Shown: positions 770 to 14,382, numbered from the stretch's first letter. The stretch: 27,264 nt of DNA from a virus (IMGVR_UViG_2690316318_000023:1-27264); one strand, 5' to 3'. A program made the numbers and translations. The notes: generated by a model not told the origin, from the letters alone.

Positions 770-1855
770 ATGATTCTCAAAAGCCACCTGTATTCAATGC
801 CTTTGATGGGTTTCATCCATAGTTATTTTCTCGTGACTGACATGGAGATTTTGATTTCAAGGTGTGCAAAAACTATCGCAGAGTACAATGGAGCTCAAAT
901 GACTGTGGCACCAAAAGATCAAAGTTTGAAATCTGTAAGGGTGGGCTTTTACACAAGCTCTGAGAATATTCGCACTAGTAACAAGGGGTTAACCGCAGAG
1001 GCCTTTAAAAATCTGTATGATCGGTGTTCTAAAGACTTCAAGATGACCCACTATGCAGACTTTGGTGAAAGAGAACTTAAAATTCATTTTCTAGACATCT
1101 CACCCGAGGATGGCTCCTACTTCGGATTCATGTCTCGAAGAAGAAAAAGCGCAACACTGGCATATATTACAGATAAAGAGTGGGTGGAAGAGAAAATCCC
1201 TCTAGCCGGGGCAAAGACTCTTTCAGAACGTACATACTTTATTTATTATCCTCAGACAGACATTCTAGTATTGTCTTTAAATCATTTAGGTCCACGCCAT
1301 AGTGACTTAGCCTTCCTTCTTTTCAACTCCAGTGATCGCGGAGTCCCTGTTTCTTTTGAAGCCATTTGGAAAGAAGAAAGCATCAAAGAACTACTCGAAA
1401 CTGGATCCAATCTAAGAAGCTGCGAGATTTCTGTGGCCATCCCAAGAAACTTCAATGCCGCACAGTATCAACTCGATGGAATGTTCGCGAATCAGATGAT
1501 TGAGATGATCAGAGGCACCAGTTCAAGCCACCTGACTATTTCGTTACGCGGACATTCTCCATTAAAAAGAAAAGCAAAGGGATGGCTTGAGGATGACGTT
1601 AAAAAAAGCCTTAAGGAGATGCTAGAAAAGTTCCCTGGTGGTGATGGTCGTTTAACTTTTGAGAAAGCAAATGTTGTTGCTCAGGGCGATAAAAAGAAGA
1701 AAAGTCTTGTAGACGAAGTTCTTACGGTAAAGAAGATGGTGCCTATCCAAGCAGATGGGTATCCGACCGATACTGACGTTAAAAATGCTATGCTACAAGC
1801 AAAGAATGACAACCTTAGGTATCTAACCCAGTACTATTTGGTTAGTCAAACGTAA
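770..1855 (+). CDS. Hypothetical protein, large subunit of cargo module A (361 aa as drawn; true start may be ATG 899)
   Basis: Long ORF in visibly AT-rich DNA. The best Shine-Dalgarno (GGAG, 5-nt spacer) precedes the in-frame ATG at 899, so the N-terminus is uncertain. No catalytic motif recognisable by eye. The next gene follows 12 nt downstream. Confidence 0.6.
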   Translation: MILKSHLYSMPLMGFIHSYFLVTDMEILISRCAKTIAEYNGAQMTVAPKDQSLKSVRVGFYTSSENIRTSNKGLTAEAFKNLYDRCSKDFKMTHYADFGERELKIHFLDISPEDGSYFGFMSRRRKSATLAYITDKEWVEEKIPLAGAKTLSERTYFIYYPQTDILVLSLNHLGPRHSDLAFLLFNSSDRGVPVSFEAIWKEESIKELLETGSNLRSCEISVAIPRNFNAAQYQLDGMFANQMIEMIRGTSSSHLTISLRGHSPLKRKAKGWLEDDVKKSLKEMLEKFPGGDGRLTFEKANVVAQGDKKKKSLVDEVLTVKKMVPIQADGYPTDTDVKNAMLQAKNDNLRYLTQYYLVSQT

Positions 1856-1867
1856 CAGGAATACATT

Positions 1868-2305
1868 ATGAGTTCTCGGAAATTGTTTGCTGCCAAGTCA
1901 TTGTTTGCTCTAGCTATGGCTATTGCTGGTGCCCATTTTTTACACGACCTAGATCACAATGCTGTCATTTCGGCTGCTGGTGCTCTTTCAACTATTTCTG
2001 GAGTTCTCTTTGGTTTTGTTTTGGCATCAGTCACCATGCTAAGTAGCTTTGATAGTTCAAAGGGAATTGTAGGCGCTCTAAAAAGTAACGGAGTACTAAA
2101 AGGCATTATTGAGGGGCTTTTTGATACAGGAACTACGCTGATCACAGCCTGCCTATTAGCAATGATCTCGATGTTTGCCCCTGTTGTCAGCAATCTGCCT
2201 CTGGATTATTATGCCCTGCTACTCGCAGGGGCATATTTGATTATATCAATGATAACTTTTTTCTTTAACTGGAAATCTTTATCTAAAATAATAAGTTACA
2301 TATGA
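1868..2305 (+). CDS. Small four-helix integral membrane protein (145 aa), second gene of cargo module A
   Basis: ATG preceded by AGGA. Four hydrophobic helices are visible (LFALAMAIAGAHFL, ISGVLFGFVLASVTML, TLITACLLAMISMFAPVV, YYALLLAGAYLIISMITFFF). Same strand and AT-rich composition as 770-1855. Confidence 0.7.
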   Translation: MSSRKLFAAKSLFALAMAIAGAHFLHDLDHNAVISAAGALSTISGVLFGFVLASVTMLSSFDSSKGIVGALKSNGVLKGIIEGLFDTGTTLITACLLAMISMFAPVVSNLPLDYYALLLAGAYLIISMITFFFNWKSLSKIISYI

Positions 2306-3067
2306 TAAATATTTCAAAATGAGTCCCCCTGCTACGGATAGTCCTTGGCTTAAAAAATACCGTCACCGCTGAATACCCACACAGTGCCCCCACCCATTTA
2401 GTTGGCATAATGTATTCAACTGATTGAGGAATGGCTCCTCTTTTACTACCAAACGGCCATCGCTGGCGCATTCATCCGCTGGTAGTGGAACTTTTTAGCC
2501 ATCAGCGCCTCCCTAAATCAATTCCTTACATCGCTCAAATTCAACAACCATTGTTGTAATCTTGCTGCTATCAAGTAACGCCTTTGTATTACGCCGACTT
2601 TATCTTGCCAGCAACATACGCCATCCGATAATTTCGATGTTACGCGCGCATACTTGTCGCAAAATATCAGACAAAAGCCAGATTCAGAACGTCGTGATAA
2701 CCACCAGCACAACAGAGAGGTCATGTAACGCGATTTATCACATCAGATACATGTGATTGGTGTACCAGCATAAAACATCGTCATAGCGCGTCCTGTGCGC
2801 ATATACGCCGATAATCAACACATCACCACCACTCTGTCTCGTGTAGAGAACAGTTTCATGGTATCCCCCGCCATCGTGTGCGTACTGGTCGGACGCAGTT
2901 GCAAAAAATTTTGCAACTGATACCCCTCGCGCGCGTACTGGTCACGAAATTGGTGTTTTGCTGTGGCAGTGATATCAGAAAAATCTTCCTGTTTCACATA
3001 AAGCGGATATGCGCGTACTGTAACGGCCCCATCAACGGGGATCGGATTTGAAATCCCGACCCAAGCT

Positions 3068-3487
3068 ATGTACCAAATGCCATGTCTTGGATATATGATG
3101 ATTGCCATTCTAAACAAAGCTAAAGGGAGGGTTGGTGTGAATGCTCAGGCTGTCATCATGGTTTTCCTTGGTCTGATTGTCGCAAAACTATATCCAGACT
3201 GGTGGAAAGGGGCATTAGCAACTGTCGCCATCTATTTGCTTTTATCCGTCGTTAAGCGATCGTTCGTTAAGACCGTAAATCAAGCAAAACGTTTCTCATT
3301 TAAGAATTTAATAAACTATATTACTGGGCTTATTTTTTGCCTTTCAATTTTGATCGCCTCAGCTTTTTTGCCCGTATCAATAGCTAATTTTTTTGGCGCA
3401 CCATATGAGGTAGGTTATCTATTCTCTGTTTTTTGCCTTGTTCTTTCCCTTCTTTACCTATGGATGAGAGCAAAGAACAAAAATTAG
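3068..3487 (+). CDS. Small multi-pass membrane protein (139 aa as drawn; probable start GTG 3137, about 116 aa)
   Basis: GGGAGGG Shine-Dalgarno sits 6 nt before the in-frame GTG at 3137. Four hydrophobic segments. Convergent with the 701-aa gene. Confidence 0.55.
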   Translation: MYQMPCLGYMMIAILNKAKGRVGVNAQAVIMVFLGLIVAKLYPDWWKGALATVAIYLLLSVVKRSFVKTVNQAKRFSFKNLINYITGLIFCLSILIASAFLPVSIANFFGAPYEVGYLFSVFCLVLSLLYLWMRAKNKN

Positions 3488-3505: not shown

Positions 3506-5611
3506 TTATTGAGCTTCTTTTTGTGATGCCTGTGCGACTCTGGTGAGCGATTGTGTGACCGTACTGATCGCTCTGTCATATGCTGTGCTACCTTTTGGCG
3601 TATTTGCCAGACGTAACAAGGCATTTCGTATAACAGGGCTTTCGTATGCCTTCGCTGCTCCGCCTACGGCACCAGCAGCAGGAACAACAAACGCAGCCGT
3701 TTTTAGCATCCCCGCTAATACTGCTGCGTTTATGATGCCACCACCAACTAACAATCCATAAAGCTGCTGACCATTTAAGTTTTGAACGTTCGCTTTTGCC
3801 GCGTGTCTTGTATCGTTGAGGTATTTAATAACGCCGTCCAGTTCCTTTCCATGTACGCCTTTAAAGAAAGTTGCTGATTGCTTCCTGTTCCGGTGTAACG
3901 CATTAATAAACTTCTCAACACTGATATTTCCAGACGGATCAGTCGCCTTATCTACAGCATTCTGAACTATGGCTGCTCGTGCGTTTTGCCTACCATTGTC
4001 ATCCAGAAGCCTGTAAAGCTGAGAACGTTCTGATGGGCTTTGGCTAAAAACGAGTTTTGTTACATCCTCAGGCGTGGCCTTGCCGCTGGCTATTGCCTTT
4101 TGAACGCGCGTTCTTCCCATCATGTCATTGAATTTAGACCATGAGCGATCAACCCTTGCCATATTAATGGCTTCGTCTGCTCCAAGATTTTTGGCTACGG
4201 CTTTTTTCATATCCGCCGTATATGCCTTGTAGATAATATCGCTGGCTTTCTGGAGCGTATCTTTATCAACAGTGTCAGATGACGCCATAAATCGCTTTCG
4301 AAGATCGGTTCTGTTTTCCCTCGCCAGACGCAGGTCATTTGGTCCGCTGGTGATATCGTCTTTAAATTGCTGCAAGACTTTTACCGCGGCTCTATCCTGA
4401 GATTTGCCCGGGCGGCTTAACACGGCAATCTGATTGTCGATAGCTTTTACCGTGTTTGAGAGATCGACAGGGGTATCCCCCATAGCGTCAATTATGCGGT
4501 TATATCGCTTTCCTGCTGCCTCAATGAATTTTTGTTGCCCTTTAGTCGCAGATTCATAAAGCTGTTTATCAGAAATGCCACCCAGACCATCGCTAAATGT
4601 TCTGACTAAATTTTCTCGTGCTTGTTGTTGATTCAGCCGATTCTTACCGGTTCCAAAAAAAGGAACTCTTTCGCCTAATGTCTGAGCCTGACTCTGCATA
4701 AAGGTTTTATCTTTCAGCATGTCACTGGTCATTAACGGCAGATTTCTTTCCGATGCAAAGTCGACAGCAGCCTTTGCTTCAGGCGACATATCACCACGAA
4801 CAGCCCTCGAAACCGCACTCGCTGTATTTTCCAGCCCCTTACCAATACCACCAATGCCAGCAGAAATTACCGTTTGTAACGGATCAATATCTTCTCCACC
4901 AGCAAGGCTGGTGGCTCCCTGTAGTGCTAAATCTGTAGCTGCTGATTTTCCTATGGCACCAAGCACCGTTCCAGCCCTGCCCGCTGGTGTAAACGCCAAC
5001 GCATTAGCAAGAAACGAGGTCAGGTCTTGCGGTGATAAACCCGGCTTGTTCAGGGCATAATCACCTGATGGCAGAGAAACGATAGTATTCCCCTTCTCAT
5101 CCTGCCTTAATGTCGCCCCCATTCCCTGAAGAATCTTTTCCTGAGACGCGTCAGAGCCGAAAAGTTGAGACCATCCAGCCTTTAGGGCATCCATGCTTAG
5201 TGAGTTCAATTCTGGGGCAGAGGCGACATTTTGCAGTCTCTCCATCTCTGGAGTCATTCGGCTTTCGCCTGTTATAGCATCGCGCATCGCAGCCCCAAGA
5301 CTGGCTCCCTGTTCTGCTGAACGCTCAAGCCCCTCTCTTTGCTGAGTAGCTAACTTTGCATACCCTGACGCAAGAGAATTATCAGATGATGTATGTTGAA
5401 TATTTTGAGTTGCTGATTGGGATCGGTCTATTTCATTCGTTGATGGTAGTGGATAGGCAGCATAAAAAGCCTGCTTAGCCTGCTCTACACTTTCTCCGGC
5501 TTGCGGGGCCACGACTTCATTGAAGTATTGCTCCTGAGCCTGCGCTTTTTGTTCTGGTGCTAACGCCTGATACTGTGGAGAGGCGATAACATCTTTCCAT
5601 GCTTTAGCCAT
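3506..5611 (-). CDS. Hypothetical protein (701 aa), distal gene of the three-gene cargo operon; Ala/Gln/Ser-rich with a C-terminal hydrophobic Gly/Ala-rich segment
   Basis: ATG at 5611-5609 overlaps the upstream stop (TAATG) and is preceded by GGGGTGA. No Walker A or nuclease motif seen by eye. C-terminal LLVGGGIINAAVLAGMLKTAAFVVPAAGAVGGAA looks membrane-associating. Confidence 0.8.
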   Translation of the reverse strand: MAKAWKDVIASPQYQALAPEQKAQAQEQYFNEVVAPQAGESVEQAKQAFYAAYPLPSTNEIDRSQSATQNIQHTSSDNSLASGYAKLATQQREGLERSAEQGASLGAAMRDAITGESRMTPEMERLQNVASAPELNSLSMDALKAGWSQLFGSDASQEKILQGMGATLRQDEKGNTIVSLPSGDYALNKPGLSPQDLTSFLANALAFTPAGRAGTVLGAIGKSAATDLALQGATSLAGGEDIDPLQTVISAGIGGIGKGLENTASAVSRAVRGDMSPEAKAAVDFASERNLPLMTSDMLKDKTFMQSQAQTLGERVPFFGTGKNRLNQQQARENLVRTFSDGLGGISDKQLYESATKGQQKFIEAAGKRYNRIIDAMGDTPVDLSNTVKAIDNQIAVLSRPGKSQDRAAVKVLQQFKDDITSGPNDLRLARENRTDLRKRFMASSDTVDKDTLQKASDIIYKAYTADMKKAVAKNLGADEAINMARVDRSWSKFNDMMGRTRVQKAIASGKATPEDVTKLVFSQSPSERSQLYRLLDDNGRQNARAAIVQNAVDKATDPSGNISVEKFINALHRNRKQSATFFKGVHGKELDGVIKYLNDTRHAAKANVQNLNGQQLYGLLVGGGIINAAVLAGMLKTAAFVVPAAGAVGGAAKAYESPVIRNALLRLANTPKGSTAYDRAISTVTQSLTRVAQASQKEAQ

Positions 5612-7077
5612 TAATCACCCCATAGTGAAGAAAAGTTACTGCTGGCTGCTGGCTGTGATACCTGCTCAGATTGCGGCAATGTCTGCGACGAAGAAGCAGT
5701 TCCTCTGTCAACTGCTGAAATAACCCGCAAAGCATCATAAGTTCGACCAGAAGCAGCTTTCAGCGAATTGAACTGGTTTTCCATCTTCCGGCGCTTGGTA
5801 TCAATGGTTTTTGTGGAATCACCAGGCTGAGGGAAATACATTTGATAATATTTGGACATTTCAGCTGGTAGGATAGATGCCCCTGTTTCCTGACGGAGTA
5901 TTGCCATTATTGCGTCATTAGCATTAACAACGTATTGCTGCTCTGCTGGGCTGAGCGTTAAGTTAGCCAGCGTCCCATTACCCAAAGCATTATTAATGAT
6001 CGCCACTCGCTGTGGGCTAAGCTGGTCTTTCAGTGTATCTATTGAATCAAGAGCATCCCTAACCCTGTATGCAAATCCAGCAGCTTTTTTAGCCCCTTCT
6101 GGCGACTTTTCCATGATCTTTTGGGCTGTTGGCAAAGCTATTGGACGAAACCCATCTCCAGATATTGGCTGGTTTAGTTTTCCCTGCTCTTCACTTCCGT
6201 CTGTGTAGTATTTTGTGACAGTGCCATCATCGTTTTCTCTAACACTCATTAATTTTTTGGCGTTTGTATTAATTCCAGCCGCTGCCGCAAATGCCGCCGC
6301 CCCCTCTGGATCCGCCTTTAACATTTGCGCGTACTGATTGTAATTCTGCATTGCTGCTGTTGGTGCATATGCTGACGTTAACGCATTTGCTCGGCTAATA
6401 TCCTGCCCTCTCGCCTGAAGTGCTTCGCCAGCCTGATTGCTGCGGATTGTCTCTGCCAACTTGCCACGCTCAATATCCCGACCTTCCATTTGATCTTTGA
6501 TATCGAAATACTTCTCATGACCGAGAGAAAACAGCGCCAGATTACCTGCGAAATGCTGGAAGCCCTGCGGGTCATTAACCTGCATTTCAGCAATAGTTTC
6601 TGGAGGGATACCTAAACGACGCATCTCCTGCTCATTATCCATCATGAACCTGCCAAATGCGCCCTGACCAAGCGATGAGGCTACCTGTGCTTTGAGCGCC
6701 AGATTGCCATAATCATCCCTTTGAGCATCATCGACATAACTCATCCCTTTACGGACTTCCTCAAACTCTTCTGGGAATGCTGTAATAAGATTACGCATCT
6801 GCTCCCTGTCACCGGACGCATAAGCATCTGCATAACCTTTCTGGAATGCCGCTTTACGCTCCTGCTGTTGCTGCTGCTTATAAATATCAGCAACGCCAGC
6901 CAGACCACGAAGACCTGTCAGAGCAACGTTATTTGCACCTGAGCGAGCCAGTTCATTGTTTTCGCGGATCAGACCAAGCGTTGCGTTAATGTCGCTTGCC
7001 TTTGGCGCATTCTCGTTTTGCGCACCAATGCCAGCCAGAAAACCACCAGAATTAATACCCTGTTGCCACGTAGCCAT
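5611..7077 (-). CDS. Hypothetical protein (about 488 aa from ATG 7077; ORF open to GTG 7089), middle gene of the three-gene cargo operon
   Basis: Long ORF, translationally coupled to the 701-aa gene. Gln/Ala-rich (QQQQQERKAAFQ), no recognisable enzymatic motif. Confidence 0.8.
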   Translation of the reverse strand: MATWQQGINSGGFLAGIGAQNENAPKASDINATLGLIRENNELARSGANNVALTGLRGLAGVADIYKQQQQQERKAAFQKGYADAYASGDREQMRNLITAFPEEFEEVRKGMSYVDDAQRDDYGNLALKAQVASSLGQGAFGRFMMDNEQEMRRLGIPPETIAEMQVNDPQGFQHFAGNLALFSLGHEKYFDIKDQMEGRDIERGKLAETIRSNQAGEALQARGQDISRANALTSAYAPTAAMQNYNQYAQMLKADPEGAAAFAAAAGINTNAKKLMSVRENDDGTVTKYYTDGSEEQGKLNQPISGDGFRPIALPTAQKIMEKSPEGAKKAAGFAYRVRDALDSIDTLKDQLSPQRVAIINNALGNGTLANLTLSPAEQQYVVNANDAIMAILRQETGASILPAEMSKYYQMYFPQPGDSTKTIDTKRRKMENQFNSLKAASGRTYDALRVISAVDRGTASSSQTLPQSEQVSQPAASSNFSSLWGD

Positions 7078-7081
7078 TGAT

Positions 7082-7255
7082 TTACCCACGTCCAGTTAAA
7101 GTGTAAGCCAGCGCCTTATCCATTAATCCCCGAGCAATTTCATGGATCGTTGGCGCAACTCCTACCTCTGATTTTTTACGCTGCTCCTCCTGAATTTTCT
7201 TTATCGCTTCCATTTGCTTCTCACTTATCAATACTGGCTTTACTGAAATAGCCAT
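7082..7255 (-). CDS. Small hypothetical protein (57 aa), first gene of the three-gene cargo operon; possible small DNA-binding or regulatory protein
   Basis: ATG at 7255 preceded by AAGGGGG (4-5 nt spacer); its stop lies 2 nt before the next gene's ATG. Translation: MAISVKPVLISEKQMEAIKKIQEEQRKKSEVGVAPTIHEIARGLMDKALAYTLTGRG. Confidence 0.5.
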   Translation of the reverse strand: MAISVKPVLISEKQMEAIKKIQEEQRKKSEVGVAPTIHEIARGLMDKALAYTLTGRG

Positions 7256-11685: not shown

Positions 11686-11876
11686 TTTTCACCCCCAAGA
11701 ATTACCAGCTCTGCACGGGCATCGTTAACCAAAGATGAGCACGCTTTAATCGCATCCACGACATCAGCAGCGTCCATTTCTTCAGCCGAAAGACTGACAG
11801 CAACCAGGACAGCCGCTACTTGCTCAATTAATTGAAGTGCTGACGTAAGGCGAGGGGTATTAATTGAGTTATTCAT
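11682..11876 (-). CDS. Small hypothetical protein (64 aa from ATG 11876)
   Basis: GGGGG Shine-Dalgarno 6 nt before the ATG at 11876. The track ORF extends to 11933 but has no ribosome-binding site there. Confidence 0.45.
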   Translation of the reverse strand: MNNSINTPRLTSALQLIEQVAAVLVAVSLSAEEMDAADVVDAIKACSSLVNDARAELVILGGEK

Positions 11877-12936
11877 TGGTTGCCCCCGTTTTTCCTGGCA
11901 TTTGTCCACCTTCCAGCAGGAAATGAACGTCACGAACGGCGAGATCCAATATCGCGAGTAACGCCTTCAGCCTTTCGTCTCGTGAGGGAGAGTTGCTCAC
12001 CAGAATGTCGTTAATCACTTCTGTCAGTGTGATGATCTGGCTTGTGCGTTCGAGGGGATCCATATGCACATCGTAGGTTTTAATCATGTGCCACCTCCAT
12101 GCGGATACGACCAGCAAAAAAGCAGACGTGATCGCGCACCAGAGAACGGCGAGCATCGCGTTCAGACTCGGCAGCAATATGATGAATTTTGGCGGTAATT
12201 GTCGGGCAATCGCGGCGAACTGCGGCGATAATCCAGATAAATTGCGGTTTTTGGGTAGGGGTAGTAGCCAGCATGTGGCAGCCTCCTTCAGATAGCAGGT
12301 TACGCTACCACCGGAAACGCCAATTTCGCTGGTGGTAGCCCAGACAGGGTTGGCGTAACCGGCTCTGAAGGATACCGGCGCTTCCGAAGAAGCCCCCGCC
12401 TGAGCCACCATTGATTGACAAAGGCGCTGGATTATACACCAACGCCCAAAAAATGGGTGAGTCAGACCTACGACATAAAAAAAGACGCTCGGCGCGTCAT
12501 ATGTCGCCTTCAGAATTTTCAGGACGCCAATCCCGGCACCCGTTTTATGAGGTGCCTTATAACCATAAACCGTGTTGCCGCATAACGGCAAGCTCTTTTT
12601 TATGGACTCCGAAAACTCAGTATTGGAAGCACCAGATGCACAATACATCGCGCTCATTTCGTTAACGTCGCGCGTATGGACGAAGGTTTTTGTGGAGTCA
12701 CTACGCGAGCAGAGAAAGCCATCTACGACCAGAAATTCTCTGGCGCAGCCGCTGACCTTCTCAACGCTAACACCATCGACCGTAATTTCTGACATAGTTA
12801 AGGCATCCGCTCCTACCACCAGAAAATGATAAACTTTGCTTGTATCTGCTGTATTAATGCCAGACTTTGCTGTCATATTGCTGGATTTTGGTGACATACC
12901 AGCCAGTGAAAATATCTTCTTCTGGACGGTTAGCAT
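11869..12936 (-). CDS. ORF of uncertain structure (355 codons open); N-terminal part looks like a real protein, C-terminal part overlaps alternative small genes
   Basis: ATG at 12936 has a GGAGG Shine-Dalgarno. The frame is open to 11869, but strong GGAGG-ATG sites also occur at 12274 (other frame, 64 aa) and 12087 (same frame, 72 aa), so the real gene boundaries are unclear. Confidence 0.35.
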
Positions 12937-13112
12937 TTGTTAACCTCCGCGAACTCCTTCATGAAGCGCGCCAGCGGTTGTACGCATGGCGATTGATACC
13001 CGTCGCGATAAAACGTCACTCGGTTGTGAGACACGCTTTCGACAGTAACGAGTGCTCCGTGGGCATCTTTGTAGCGTTTTTGAGGTTGTGGTGTTCCTGT
13101 TGGCTTAGACAT
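12930..13112 (-). CDS. Small hypothetical protein (about 60 aa from ATG 13112)
   Basis: GGAGG Shine-Dalgarno 6 nt upstream of ATG 13112, which overlaps the end of the upstream gene. Confidence 0.45.
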   Translation of the reverse strand: MSKPTGTPQPQKRYKDAHGALVTVESVSHNRVTFYRDGYQSPCVQPLARFMKEFAEVNKC

Positions 13113-13938
13113 TGACCGCCTCCAGACGCTTGGCGAGCCAGCGTTGCGACAGGCGGGTGAGTTCTCCTTTGCGCTGCTCATATTCCATGCCCATATCAAT
13201 TAACGTGATATTGGTGCTTTCGAGATATGAGAGGTGCTCAAGCTGTTCTGCGTTCATATGGTCGCGAGGTTCGCCAGAATAGCCATTTATCCGCGCCCAC
13301 TGCTTAGCAGTTAGCCCACCAAGAACGATACGAGAAATCATATTGCTCTCGTTTGTGTAGTGGTGTTGCTGCGTCGTTTTCCCCTGCTCGGCACGGGCCA
13401 TATTCAGCGCATCGCACATTGGCTTAAAGTTGTTTGCGGCACTGATACGGGCTTTTAGCTGGCGACGATAGCGGGCGGCGATTTCAGGCACGCTACGCTG
13501 TAATTCTTCCTCGCACTGGATGAAATAACGGCGGATAGCGCGACCCTGATCATTGCGTTCGATCATTGCCAGTTCTTTCGCCATTCCGACACTTAACAGA
13601 TAGTCTTTGCCGGGTCTGCCAGACTGCTTAATCTTGCTGTAAGCCGCGCCATTCGGGCTTTTCCCCAAATTTGGGGAAATTGTTTTATGGACTGAGTAAT
13701 CGTGCCCAATGGTGAAGTCATATTCAGAGATGCGATCAGTGATCCATGTAGAGAAGTCTTTTCCCACGCCCAACGCTTTGTGTAACGCTTTTGCGCTAAC
13801 AATATTGGTTTCACGCCCACCGATATGACCAGGAATAACCGGGACAATTGCGGCAAATTCATTACCGTTAATTGTGCTCAGAGAGGCGTTCAGATGAGGG
13901 GCGGCCTCAGAAATTAATCTGCTTTTTTCGATGTTCAT
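13105..13938 (-). CDS. Phage antirepressor-like protein (277 aa)
   Basis: GGAGA Shine-Dalgarno. The N-terminal region (DYLLSVGMAKELAMIERNDQGRAIRRYFIQCEEEL) resembles the antirepressor/Rha-type N-terminal domain of phage regulatory proteins; recalled, unverified. Confidence 0.7.
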   Translation of the reverse strand: MNIEKSRLISEAAPHLNASLSTINGNEFAAIVPVIPGHIGGRETNIVSAKALHKALGVGKDFSTWITDRISEYDFTIGHDYSVHKTISPNLGKSPNGAAYSKIKQSGRPGKDYLLSVGMAKELAMIERNDQGRAIRRYFIQCEEELQRSVPEIAARYRRQLKARISAANNFKPMCDALNMARAEQGKTTQQHHYTNESNMISRIVLGGLTAKQWARINGYSGEPRDHMNAEQLEHLSYLESTNITLIDMGMEYEQRKGELTRLSQRWLAKRLEAVNV

Positions 13939-13950
13939 TTTCAGTCTCCG

Positions 13951-14382
13951 TTAAGCGGCGTTAAACGCGTCCGGGTAGAGTTTCAGAATGTCGGCAATTT
14001 CCTGCTGAGAAAGTCCGTTGTGATCATTTATGTTCGCAAGATGGTTAATATGAGTGATCACTTTCAGAACATCACCACGGCAGGAGAAACGGTAGCGAAG
14101 GTGTGTTCCGATACCATCAGGATTCTTTTCGTCGATACGCTCCAGAGTGATTCCAAGCTGGCGTTCTAACTCTGTTGCATAGTTACGACCAGAAGACAGA
14201 CGGCAGTAGCGAAGAATGTCGTTTTCTGTCCATCCCTCTATACCAGTACGCAGCATATAGACTCGGGCACGATGCTTTTTCGGTGTGCGCTTTGGTGCTT
14301 GAAGGGATTTTGTAAGGGGCGTAATATCAGATACGCGAATATCTGAATTAGCCGCCTGTAATGGGCGGTTTTTCTTTTCCAT
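13951..14382 (-). CDS. Hypothetical protein (143 aa), basic N-terminus
   Basis: ATG overlaps the alpA stop (ATGA); no recognisable domain. Confidence 0.65.
   Translation of the reverse strand: MEKKNRPLQAANSDIRVSDITPLTKSLQAPKRTPKKHRARVYMLRTGIEGWTENDILRYCRLSSGRNYATELERQLGITLERIDEKNPDGIGTHLRYRFSCRGDVLKVITHINHLANINDHNGLSQQEIADILKLYPDAFNAA

Follow-up and report, generated by a model that had tools for sequence, protein, structure and literature searches.

Positions 2306-3067 of the viral sequence IMGVR_UViG_2690316318_000023, a stretch of 27,264 nucleotides that was analyzed as a whole and is referred to below as the window, lie between a two-gene cargo and a gene for a membrane protein that occupies the slot of sieA in the P22-type part of an island. 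The region is probably an ordinary decayed spacer, composed of the wreck of an orphan gene and the start signals of the neighboring membrane-protein gene. A reading made from the sequence alone (the sequence-only reading) had also described it as a decayed spacer between cargo modules and had drawn attention to two minus-strand frames and a palindrome. Comparison with other copies places the frames and the palindrome within a conserved module of ~0.5 kb, in which a 105-codon open reading frame (ORF) is broken by a 53-bp segment, and whose right end is homologous to the leader of P22 sieA.

The Two Minus-Strand Frames Are Halves of One ORF

The two overlapping frames are present on the minus strand as had been described: an ORF at 2815-3117, encoding 100 aa from a TTG start or 97 aa from the ATG at 3108, and an out-of-phase second frame, -1 to the first, which reads ...YTRQSGGDVLIIGVYAHRTRYDDVLCWYTNHMYLM and ends at the stop codon at 2738-2740. 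These are the halves of one 105-codon ORF, of which the window holds a frameshifted relic. The 105-aa ORF is uninterrupted in the loci L006, L009, L010, and L030. It is carried by the metagenomic proteins P0003 and P0004 and by Escherichia coli 18SZHZ655Rt (CP080056). In the alignments, 105-aa copies (L006, L009, and L010) lack exactly 53 nt relative to the window. As 53 nt do not make a whole number of codons, this segment throws the halves of the ORF out of phase. In the window, the frame switch falls inside 2871-2943, and the ORF from the ATG at 3108 stops at 97 codons, without the canonical C terminus.

The frame is also open in a 123-aa form, found in L003 and L013-L018, in which the run of five G residues on the minus strand is lengthened to six (G6); RM9975 (CP028432) is a strain with this form, and a 122-aa variant was found as well. 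The existence of uninterrupted 105-aa and 123-aa versions in other copies bears out the suspicion that the frames are a frameshifted remnant. The alignments covered 23 of the ~545 copies. Of 19 haplotypes examined, four are short and intact, four encode the 123-aa form, and 11, including that of the window, are cut at 97, 89, 83, or 37 codons. The 37-codon forms carry an additional 1-nt deletion in the N-terminal half of the ORF, and a frameshift in this half is seen in L001, L002, L024, and L026.

No Working Gene Is Encoded in the Window's Copy

Sequence variation in the ORF resembles that of the noncoding DNA next to it. Among 26 variants, seven are synonymous and 19 nonsynonymous, with a ratio of 10:7:9 over the first, second, and third codon positions and a ratio of nonsynonymous to synonymous polymorphism (pN/pS) of 0.77. 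Variant density per site is 0.083 in the ORF versus 0.086 in the downstream noncoding DNA of the module. Copy pairs differ by one to four indel events in ~500 nt, compared to none in the adjoining 2.1-kb gp16 gene, which is intact in all 11 loci compared. Further single-base-pair indels pile up freely in the relic, and its point changes look neutral.

Signals for expression of the minus-strand ORF are likewise missing. There is no purine-rich Shine-Dalgarno (SD) sequence upstream of the ATG at 3108 or the TTG at 3117. The DNA past 3143, which is 5' of the ORF, is allele-specific, and since it differs between alleles, a conserved promoter for the minus-strand ORF is not possible. PGAP leaves the ORF uncalled even in intact copies, and a single-sequence AlphaFold model of the ORF is poor (mean predicted local distance difference test score [pLDDT], 46.5).

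Intact homologues of the frames were found in other copies of the module and not beyond it. An exhaustive HMMER search of 1.84 billion representative proteins detected no homologue of the ORF outside the module; 15 of the 16 matches are pieces of the module itself, and the other is a repetitive protein of 1669 aa (E 2.5e-4). In a set of 5.8 billion proteins there were 40 matches, each with a best local identity of at least 49%, and every named source was E. coli or Salmonella. The ORF has no match in Pfam, PHROGs, NCBIfam, or PADLOC.

The region encodes no working gene in the window. The earlier statement that no convincing gene is present agrees with the RefSeq annotation of relatives: in RefSeq genomes ~98% identical over 2200-3200, the interval from the 145-aa cargo gene to the membrane-protein gene is left blank (L001) or holds at most a 60-aa hypothetical protein (L002). 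With a frame of 105 codons, which exceeds chance length, the simplest reading is that of a former orphan gene, now decaying.

The further suggestion that the remnant was toxin-like did not hold. A toxin or defence gene was rejected, with no profile matches, no adjacent antitoxin-like ORF, and no homologues outside the module; fused versions of 85, 105, 123, and 125 aa also gave no toxin or defence profile match in Pfam, PADLOC, or NCBIfam. The stretch ...VLIIGVYAHRTRY... of the ORF may loosely resemble toxin C termini; apart from this, the relic shares only its size with small toxins of the RelE/ParE type. A relic of a DapA/HOGA-like protein was considered from the two best matches in the PDB (E 0.29 and 0.45), which are non-collinear, involve three chains only, and have no Pfam support; they were judged to be due to chance.

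The 53-bp Segment and Its Palindrome

The palindrome noted at 2896-2919 is real and beyond chance: it is the sole match in the window even when three mismatches are allowed, and none of 100 dinucleotide-preserving shuffles matched. It lies inside the segment that breaks the ORF. On either side of the palindrome, and not mentioned in the sequence-only reading, are the two copies of an imperfect direct repeat of 20 nt (2871-2890 and 2924-2943; 17 of 20 positions identical), whose spacing is exactly 53 nt. Among long-form copies the arms are kept while the center varies and flips, with variants on the minus strand reading AAAATTTTTT, its reverse complement AAAAAATTTT, AAAAAGTTTT, and AAAA-ATTTT. 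In L005 and L019 the length of the spacer is altered by 1 nt, and the outermost arm positions are also variable. A -1 ribosomal frameshift was considered and rejected; the sequence A_AAT_TTT at the center of the palindrome occurs in the window's copy only and, as judged by eye, is out of phase or absent in the other center variants.

A 43-nt probe from the insert matched 535 E. coli genomes, which belong to the set that carries the module (~98% of ~545 carriers), and no other locus; a palindromic probe would match one site on each strand, which would account for the median of two places per genome. The number of short-form genomes is estimated at ~10 from the difference between 545 and 535. 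The best 60 E. coli matches to a 130-nt short-form probe all span 130+53 nt, so that this probe is unable to separate the forms, and a 44-nt probe for the junction of one short haplotype found no match for that haplotype.

The repeats belong to a wider pattern. The motif GCGC(R)TACTKGT (AGTAYGCGCGCG on the minus strand) recurs three to four times in one orientation within 380 bp (2646-2657, 2878-2889, 2931-2942, and 3010-3020); a pattern search gave four matches in the window, versus 0.47 expected. The direct repeats of the 53-bp indel account for two of the copies, and a third forms the junction of a ~290-bp deletion in P0016, by which a further copy of the AGTACGCGCGCG motif is joined.

Direct repeats that flank a hairpin are a classical substrate for slippage in the literature on E. 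coli mutagenesis. The palindrome is best read as part of an insertion or duplication scar rather than as an operator. Slippage between the repeats, favored by the hairpin, would explain the precise loss of the segment in rare copies, and the insert itself may have arisen by slippage or template switching, with either insertion or deletion as the first event. What the locus shares with known cases of slippage or template switching at quasi-palindromes is a 20-nt repeat that is spaced by the length of the indel and brackets a hairpin-forming palindrome, precise loss in several haplotype backgrounds, a center in both orientations, and the larger deletion of P0016; it differs in that the mechanism is read here from sequence patterns only. 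Three other origins or roles were rejected. A dispersed miniature repeat, such as a miniature inverted-repeat transposable element (MITE) or a repetitive extragenic palindromic (REP)-like element, does not fit an insert confined to a single locus. An origin as a full tandem duplication of 53 bp has against it that the similarity between the non-repeat tails is not significant (p = 0.12). As an intrinsic terminator, the palindrome has an A/T-rich center and is followed by ATACCCC (plus strand) or CGTCCGA (minus strand), with no T-run, and it was not called by the terminator scan.

Expression Signals of the sieA-Slot Gene

The sequence-only reading had offered the region as a possible operator and promoter for the downstream membrane-protein gene. 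Signals for expression are indeed located at its right end, and the palindrome is probably not among them. Local alignment of 3114-3139 with the sequence upstream of P22 sieA (ACAAAACTAAGGAGGTTGGTGTG) shows 22 of 26 positions identical, including the GTG start codon. The P22 sieA promoter is annotated at 13861-13891, 31-61 nt upstream of the start; the equivalent position in the window is 3076-3106, inside the invariant 60-nt block. Based on this homology and position, the right end of the module is most likely the promoter and leader of whichever gene occupies the sieA slot. The leader, the ribosome-binding site, and the GTG fall within the right ~25-90 bp of the module, where by position the promoter would also lie, and the remaining ~370 bp would be an opposite-strand fossil of the 105-codon ORF, split by the 53-bp segment in ~98% of E. 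coli copies.

The product of the slot varies. The 204-aa protein encoded by the allele in L009 is a homologue of P22 SieA (E 8e-8), whereas the 116-aa allele of the window is not detectably related to it (E 0.84). P22 itself (NC_002371.2, L031) contains a 121-codon ORF at ~13868-14233 on the plus strand, divergent from sieA and in an unannotated spacer; its start overlaps the sieA promoter, and its product has an HECAH (HExxH-like) motif and no Pfam match. Homology between the relic ORF and this ORF was rejected (E 6.5, not significant).

The Module Is a Constant Junction between Variable Positions

Of 5426 complete E. coli genomes, 545 (~10%) carry the right part of the region, from 2598 or 2634 to 3136, mostly at 95-97% identity and on chromosomes only, compared to just 96 genomes in which at least 80% of 2306-3136 is covered. 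Strains with the module include ETEC H10407, EAEC 042, and ABU 83972. Homology breaks off on the left at ~2464, ~2598, and ~2634 (query positions 159, 293, and 329) and on the right at ~3143, just past the start codon of the membrane-protein gene. The module was not found in GenBank phages (blastn and tblastn), true plasmids, or GTDB species representatives; judged from protein fragments, it is also present in Salmonella.

The left neighbors vary by locus (L001-L005, L006, L009, L010, and L030) and amount to at least five cargo sets, among them an Abi_2 protein, an ImmA/IrrE protein, and several unknowns, with PerC always at the far flank. On the right there are at least three membrane-protein alleles in the sieA slot. 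With variable neighbors on both sides, the module is a constant junction between two variable positions, in keeping with the earlier description of a spacer between cargo modules.

Divergence of the module between loci is ~2-4.5%, that of the adjoining gp16 gene 0.05-8% overall and 0-16% at third codon positions. The window and L004 differ by 16 changes in 507 nt of the module and by one in 2106 nt of gp16 (2634-3140 vs 3506-5611), and L001 and L026 differ by 0.4% in the module and by 13.7% at third positions of gp16. The divergence of the module is thus uncoupled from that of gp16, which indicates recombination breakpoints between the two. The module may act passively as a homology arm in the exchange of cargo.

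Smaller changes and rearrangements were also observed. At 2714/2715, in the noncoding part of the module, the window has a private 1-nt deletion (CAACA-GAGAGG vs CAACATGAGAGG in all other aligned copies). Positions 4001-4285 of L027 belong to a deletion derivative of the island, in which the first ~37 codons of the island's own DUF4222 gene (~12930-13112 in the window, minus strand) are joined to the middle of the relic ORF; the primase and ejection genes are among the roughly 10 kb lost, and the chimeric product is P0029. A relationship between the relic and DUF4222 was rejected, since the DUF4222 match of P0029 stems from this chimera and BLASTP between the DUF4222 protein and the relic finds nothing. 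At the left edge of the module, L005 carries a 36-aa ORF, MAYAAGNMKTDSINRKAKELLDNGKIAARVAEFEQM (~6140-6250, minus strand, corresponding to ~2520-2630 of the window), with a weak match to phrog_51, a terminase small subunit (E 0.035); the window's copy is frame-broken.

Anatomy of the Region and the Surrounding Island

The features of the region and of the genes that adjoin it are collected in Table 1. The 361-aa/145-aa cargo pair (770-2305, plus strand), which abuts the spacer on the left, is of unknown function and has no match in PADLOC or NCBIfam; considering that the hotspot elsewhere holds Abi_2 and ImmA/IrrE genes, it is a candidate two-gene defence system. The trailer that follows contains two weak terminator-like hairpins on the plus strand, at 2426-2449 and 2475-2498 (two sites in the scan vs 1.0 expected), and no ORF with a family match.

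Table 1. Features in and around the spacer, by position in the window
Feature	Position	Strand	Remarks
361-aa cargo protein	770-1855	+	PHROG match, phrog_7651
145-aa predicted membrane protein	1868-2305	+	PHROG match, phrog_8552
Cargo-linked 3' trailer	2306-2597		Accompanies the 361-aa/145-aa cargo pair; mosaic junctions at ~2464 and ~2598
Conserved ~0.5-kb module	2634-3136		Reaches 2598 in one copy class; between the PerC-bounded cargo hotspot and the sieA-slot gene
Relic of 105-codon orphan ORF	2738-3108	-	ATG at 3108; stop of frame A at 2815-2817, of frame B at 2738-2740
C5 run (G5 on the minus strand)	2865-2869		Six bases restore the frame and give the 123-aa form
53-bp indel segment and duplicated flank	2871-2943		The 53 nt cannot be placed uniquely in the repeat (2879-2931 to 2891-2943)
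Near-perfect 24-bp palindrome, CAGTTGCAAAA-AA-TTTTGCAACTG	2896-2919		Two 11-nt arms, 100% complementary, 2 nt apart
P22 pac-like 22-mer, GAAGATTTTTCTGATATCACTG	2967-2988	-	16/22 identical to annotated P22 pac; weak lead
Invariant 60-nt block	3051-3110	+	0 variable columns in 16 haplotypes; TATGAT at 3094-3099
sieA-type leader, SD GGGAGG (3125-3130), and GTG start (3137-3139)	3114-3139	+	Alignment to the sequence upstream of P22 sieA
116-aa membrane protein, sieA slot	3137-3487	+	ORF list; GTG start at 3137; convergent with the gp16-like gene

The window is part of a chromosomal island and starts with a PerC regulator (1-282). To the right of the sieA slot are P22-type ejection genes, gp16-like and gp20-like (3506-7089), of which the gp16-like gene (3506-5611) is homologous to P22 gp16 (E 4e-53). 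The remainder includes a Toprim-DUF927 primase, an AntA antirepressor, C4/isrK RNAs, and an integrase. Matches above the Rfam gathering threshold are a C4 antisense RNA (12328-12415), isrK (12478-12555), and IS009 (20911-21109), all on the minus strand; a 355-aa ORF at 11869-12936, which overlaps the C4 and isrK RNAs, is probably spurious. The module is a conserved junction piece of a family of integrative islands in E. coli and Salmonella, whose gene set comprises an integrase, AlpA, the AntA/C4-RNA region, the Toprim-DUF927 primase, P22-type gp20/gp16, the sieA slot, the cargo hotspot, and PerC. Elsewhere, a 209-aa protein present on 25 contigs (P0049) combines the Pfam domains GP3_package and Phage_P22_gp16, which suggests P22-like prophage remnants with a deletion that fuses gene 3 to gene 16.

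Alternative Explanations

Several observations weigh against the interpretation of the region as a decayed spacer. The alignments are a small sample of the copies. The short forms have 105 open codons, more than chance would readily give (roughly 0.5% per frame), and there are several independent frame-restoring variants (54-bp and 51-bp forms, and the four short haplotypes); in some lineages an intact product may therefore be under some selection. The module is only 0.4-3.3% diverged from that of L026, whose gp16 differs by 13-16% at third codon positions, and this low divergence could reflect constraint and not recombination. Finally, a consensus promoter scan made no call at 3051-3110, where the promoter is placed by position only. 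In one rival reading, the minus-strand ORF is a real orphan gene whose expression is switched by indels that can revert (the 53 bp being lost or gained between the direct repeats, and G5 and G6 interchanging by slippage), with the window's copy in the OFF state. Its in-frame versions of 105, 122, and 123 aa are found in several haplotype backgrounds, the polymorphisms that flank the short forms match different long forms, which suggests recurrent precise excision, and the length of the ORF speaks for it as well. Nevertheless, such a switch is unlikely given a pN/pS of 0.77 with variants spread evenly over the codon positions, the extra frameshift in the N-terminal half in four loci, the lack of an SD sequence and a conserved upstream promoter, and an ORF that is uncalled where intact, without homologues elsewhere, and poorly modeled; furthermore, a homopolymer of 5-6 nt is short for a contingency locus. 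In another rival reading, the palindrome is an operator at which a dimeric regulator, from the island or from a helper phage, would act on the sieA-slot gene or on a divergent promoter. It is statistically non-random, is present in ~98% of copies, and has perfectly complementary arms that are conserved in long forms while the center varies. However, templated correction of quasi-palindromes can keep arms complementary without selection. The palindrome is present in a single copy, and a half-site scan of the 27 kb returned two matches, the arms themselves, versus four expected. It sits 218-241 bp ahead of the GTG, and ~190 bp separate it from the site that corresponds to the P22 sieA promoter; its spacer length and outer arm positions change between copies, and the short forms lack it entirely, together with the rest of the ORF-breaking insert, yet keep the same invariant leader block and slot gene. 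An operator is improbable on these grounds, and this part of the earlier proposal was not sustained.

Two further explanations concern the conservation of the module as such. One would have the 5' half of the relic kept for a P22-type pac site, as a remnant of a gp3-like small terminase gene, such that the island is packaged by a P22-like helper. A regular expression for pseudo-pac sites has been published (PMC10996546), and the pac-like 22-mer fits it at 16 of 17 positions; in its core, AAGATTTTTCTG, it agrees with P22 pac at 13 of 14 positions, and it is read in the same phase (EDFSDI vs EDLSEV). An identical 18-mer is found at the pac-equivalent codons of a gp3-family gene on an unrelated viral contig (L034), hhalign pairs residues 34-57 of the ORF with residues 83-106 of gp3 (P = 0.0015), the site lies within a 60-nt block with only one variable column, and the island has P22-type gp16 and gp20. 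Yet the resemblance of 2967-2988 to pac is not above chance in the window: 19% of shuffles reach at least 16 of 22 identities, a second 16/22 match occurs at 12682, and the regular expression with up to one mismatch gives two matches versus 1.22 expected. BLASTP detects no similarity between the ORF and P22 gp3, there is no match to Pfam PF16677, the hhalign probability is only 16.5% over 24 columns and is not independent of the motif that prompted the comparison, and short-query blastn against 50,697 phage records matched no terminase gene. P22 is moreover a Salmonella phage, and any E. coli helper may have a small terminase subunit (TerS) of another type. Compared to the pac site in P22 gene 3 (PF16677, GP3_package), with which it shares 16 of 22 nt, the codon phase, and 16 of 17 pseudo-pac positions, the site also lacks synteny, gene 3 being ~13 kb from sieA in P22. 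We regard packaging through this site as highly unlikely. The other explanation, that the module is a structured noncoding RNA or a long regulatory 5' untranslated region, would account for ~500 conserved bases without a working ORF in an island that has other small RNAs elsewhere (C4, isrK, and IS009), and is extremely unlikely. Rfam 15 gave no match at the gathering threshold over 2200-3300, and chance-level matches only (E of at least 1.3) when E values up to 10 were admitted; folding z-scores of -0.23 (plus strand) and -1.15 (minus strand) are no better than those of shuffled sequence, and outside the palindrome the indels and substitutions, which are scattered, form no evident compensatory pattern. 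Set against these alternatives, a decayed spacer with an expression signal at its right end remains the preferred reading, and the region falls into none of the families tested, whether of toxins, defence proteins, RNAs, terminators, operators, or dispersed repeats.

Significance and Comparison with Known Systems

The direct importance of this reading is small. An unannotated 0.8 kb of a common E. coli island would be mostly gene debris together with a sieA-type expression signal, and would hide no toxin or regulator. It does provide a clean natural case in which an indel composed of a palindrome and direct repeats breaks an ORF and restores it in rare copies. More generally, the module serves as the constant right flank of the cargo hotspot, as PerC does on the left, which should aid in delimiting the hotspot and in mining it for new defence genes. 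Only the low-probability pac reading would change the view of how these islands move; if it were true, widespread E. coli islands would be spread by P22-like helper phages via pac mimicry, despite having no terminase gene themselves.

The closest known systems are the expression region of P22 sieA, for which both leader homology and synteny were found, and the pseudogene relics of defence hotspots. In the P22 sieA locus (NC_002371.2; sieA at 13336-13830), as in the window, gp20-like and gp16-like genes are followed by a convergent membrane-protein gene, the leader, SD sequence, and GTG are homologous, and ~320 nt of unannotated DNA lie upstream of the sieA promoter. They differ in three respects: the remaining sequence of the module is not similar at the nucleotide level to P22 or any other phage in GenBank, the slot protein of the window is not detectably SieA-like, and the module resides in an integrative island that carries a primase and PerC rather than in a P22-like prophage.

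Small pseudogene relics between genes have been reported as typical of the defence hotspots of satellites and prophages and interpreted as the debris of intense recombination (PMC13586616). The region shares with them a short unannotated remnant between fast-swapped cargo and constant flanks, here PerC and the module. In contrast to those relics, the element described here is not P4-like or P2-like by gene content, and its relic, which has no recognizable parent family, resides in a conserved module found in ~10% of E. coli genomes.

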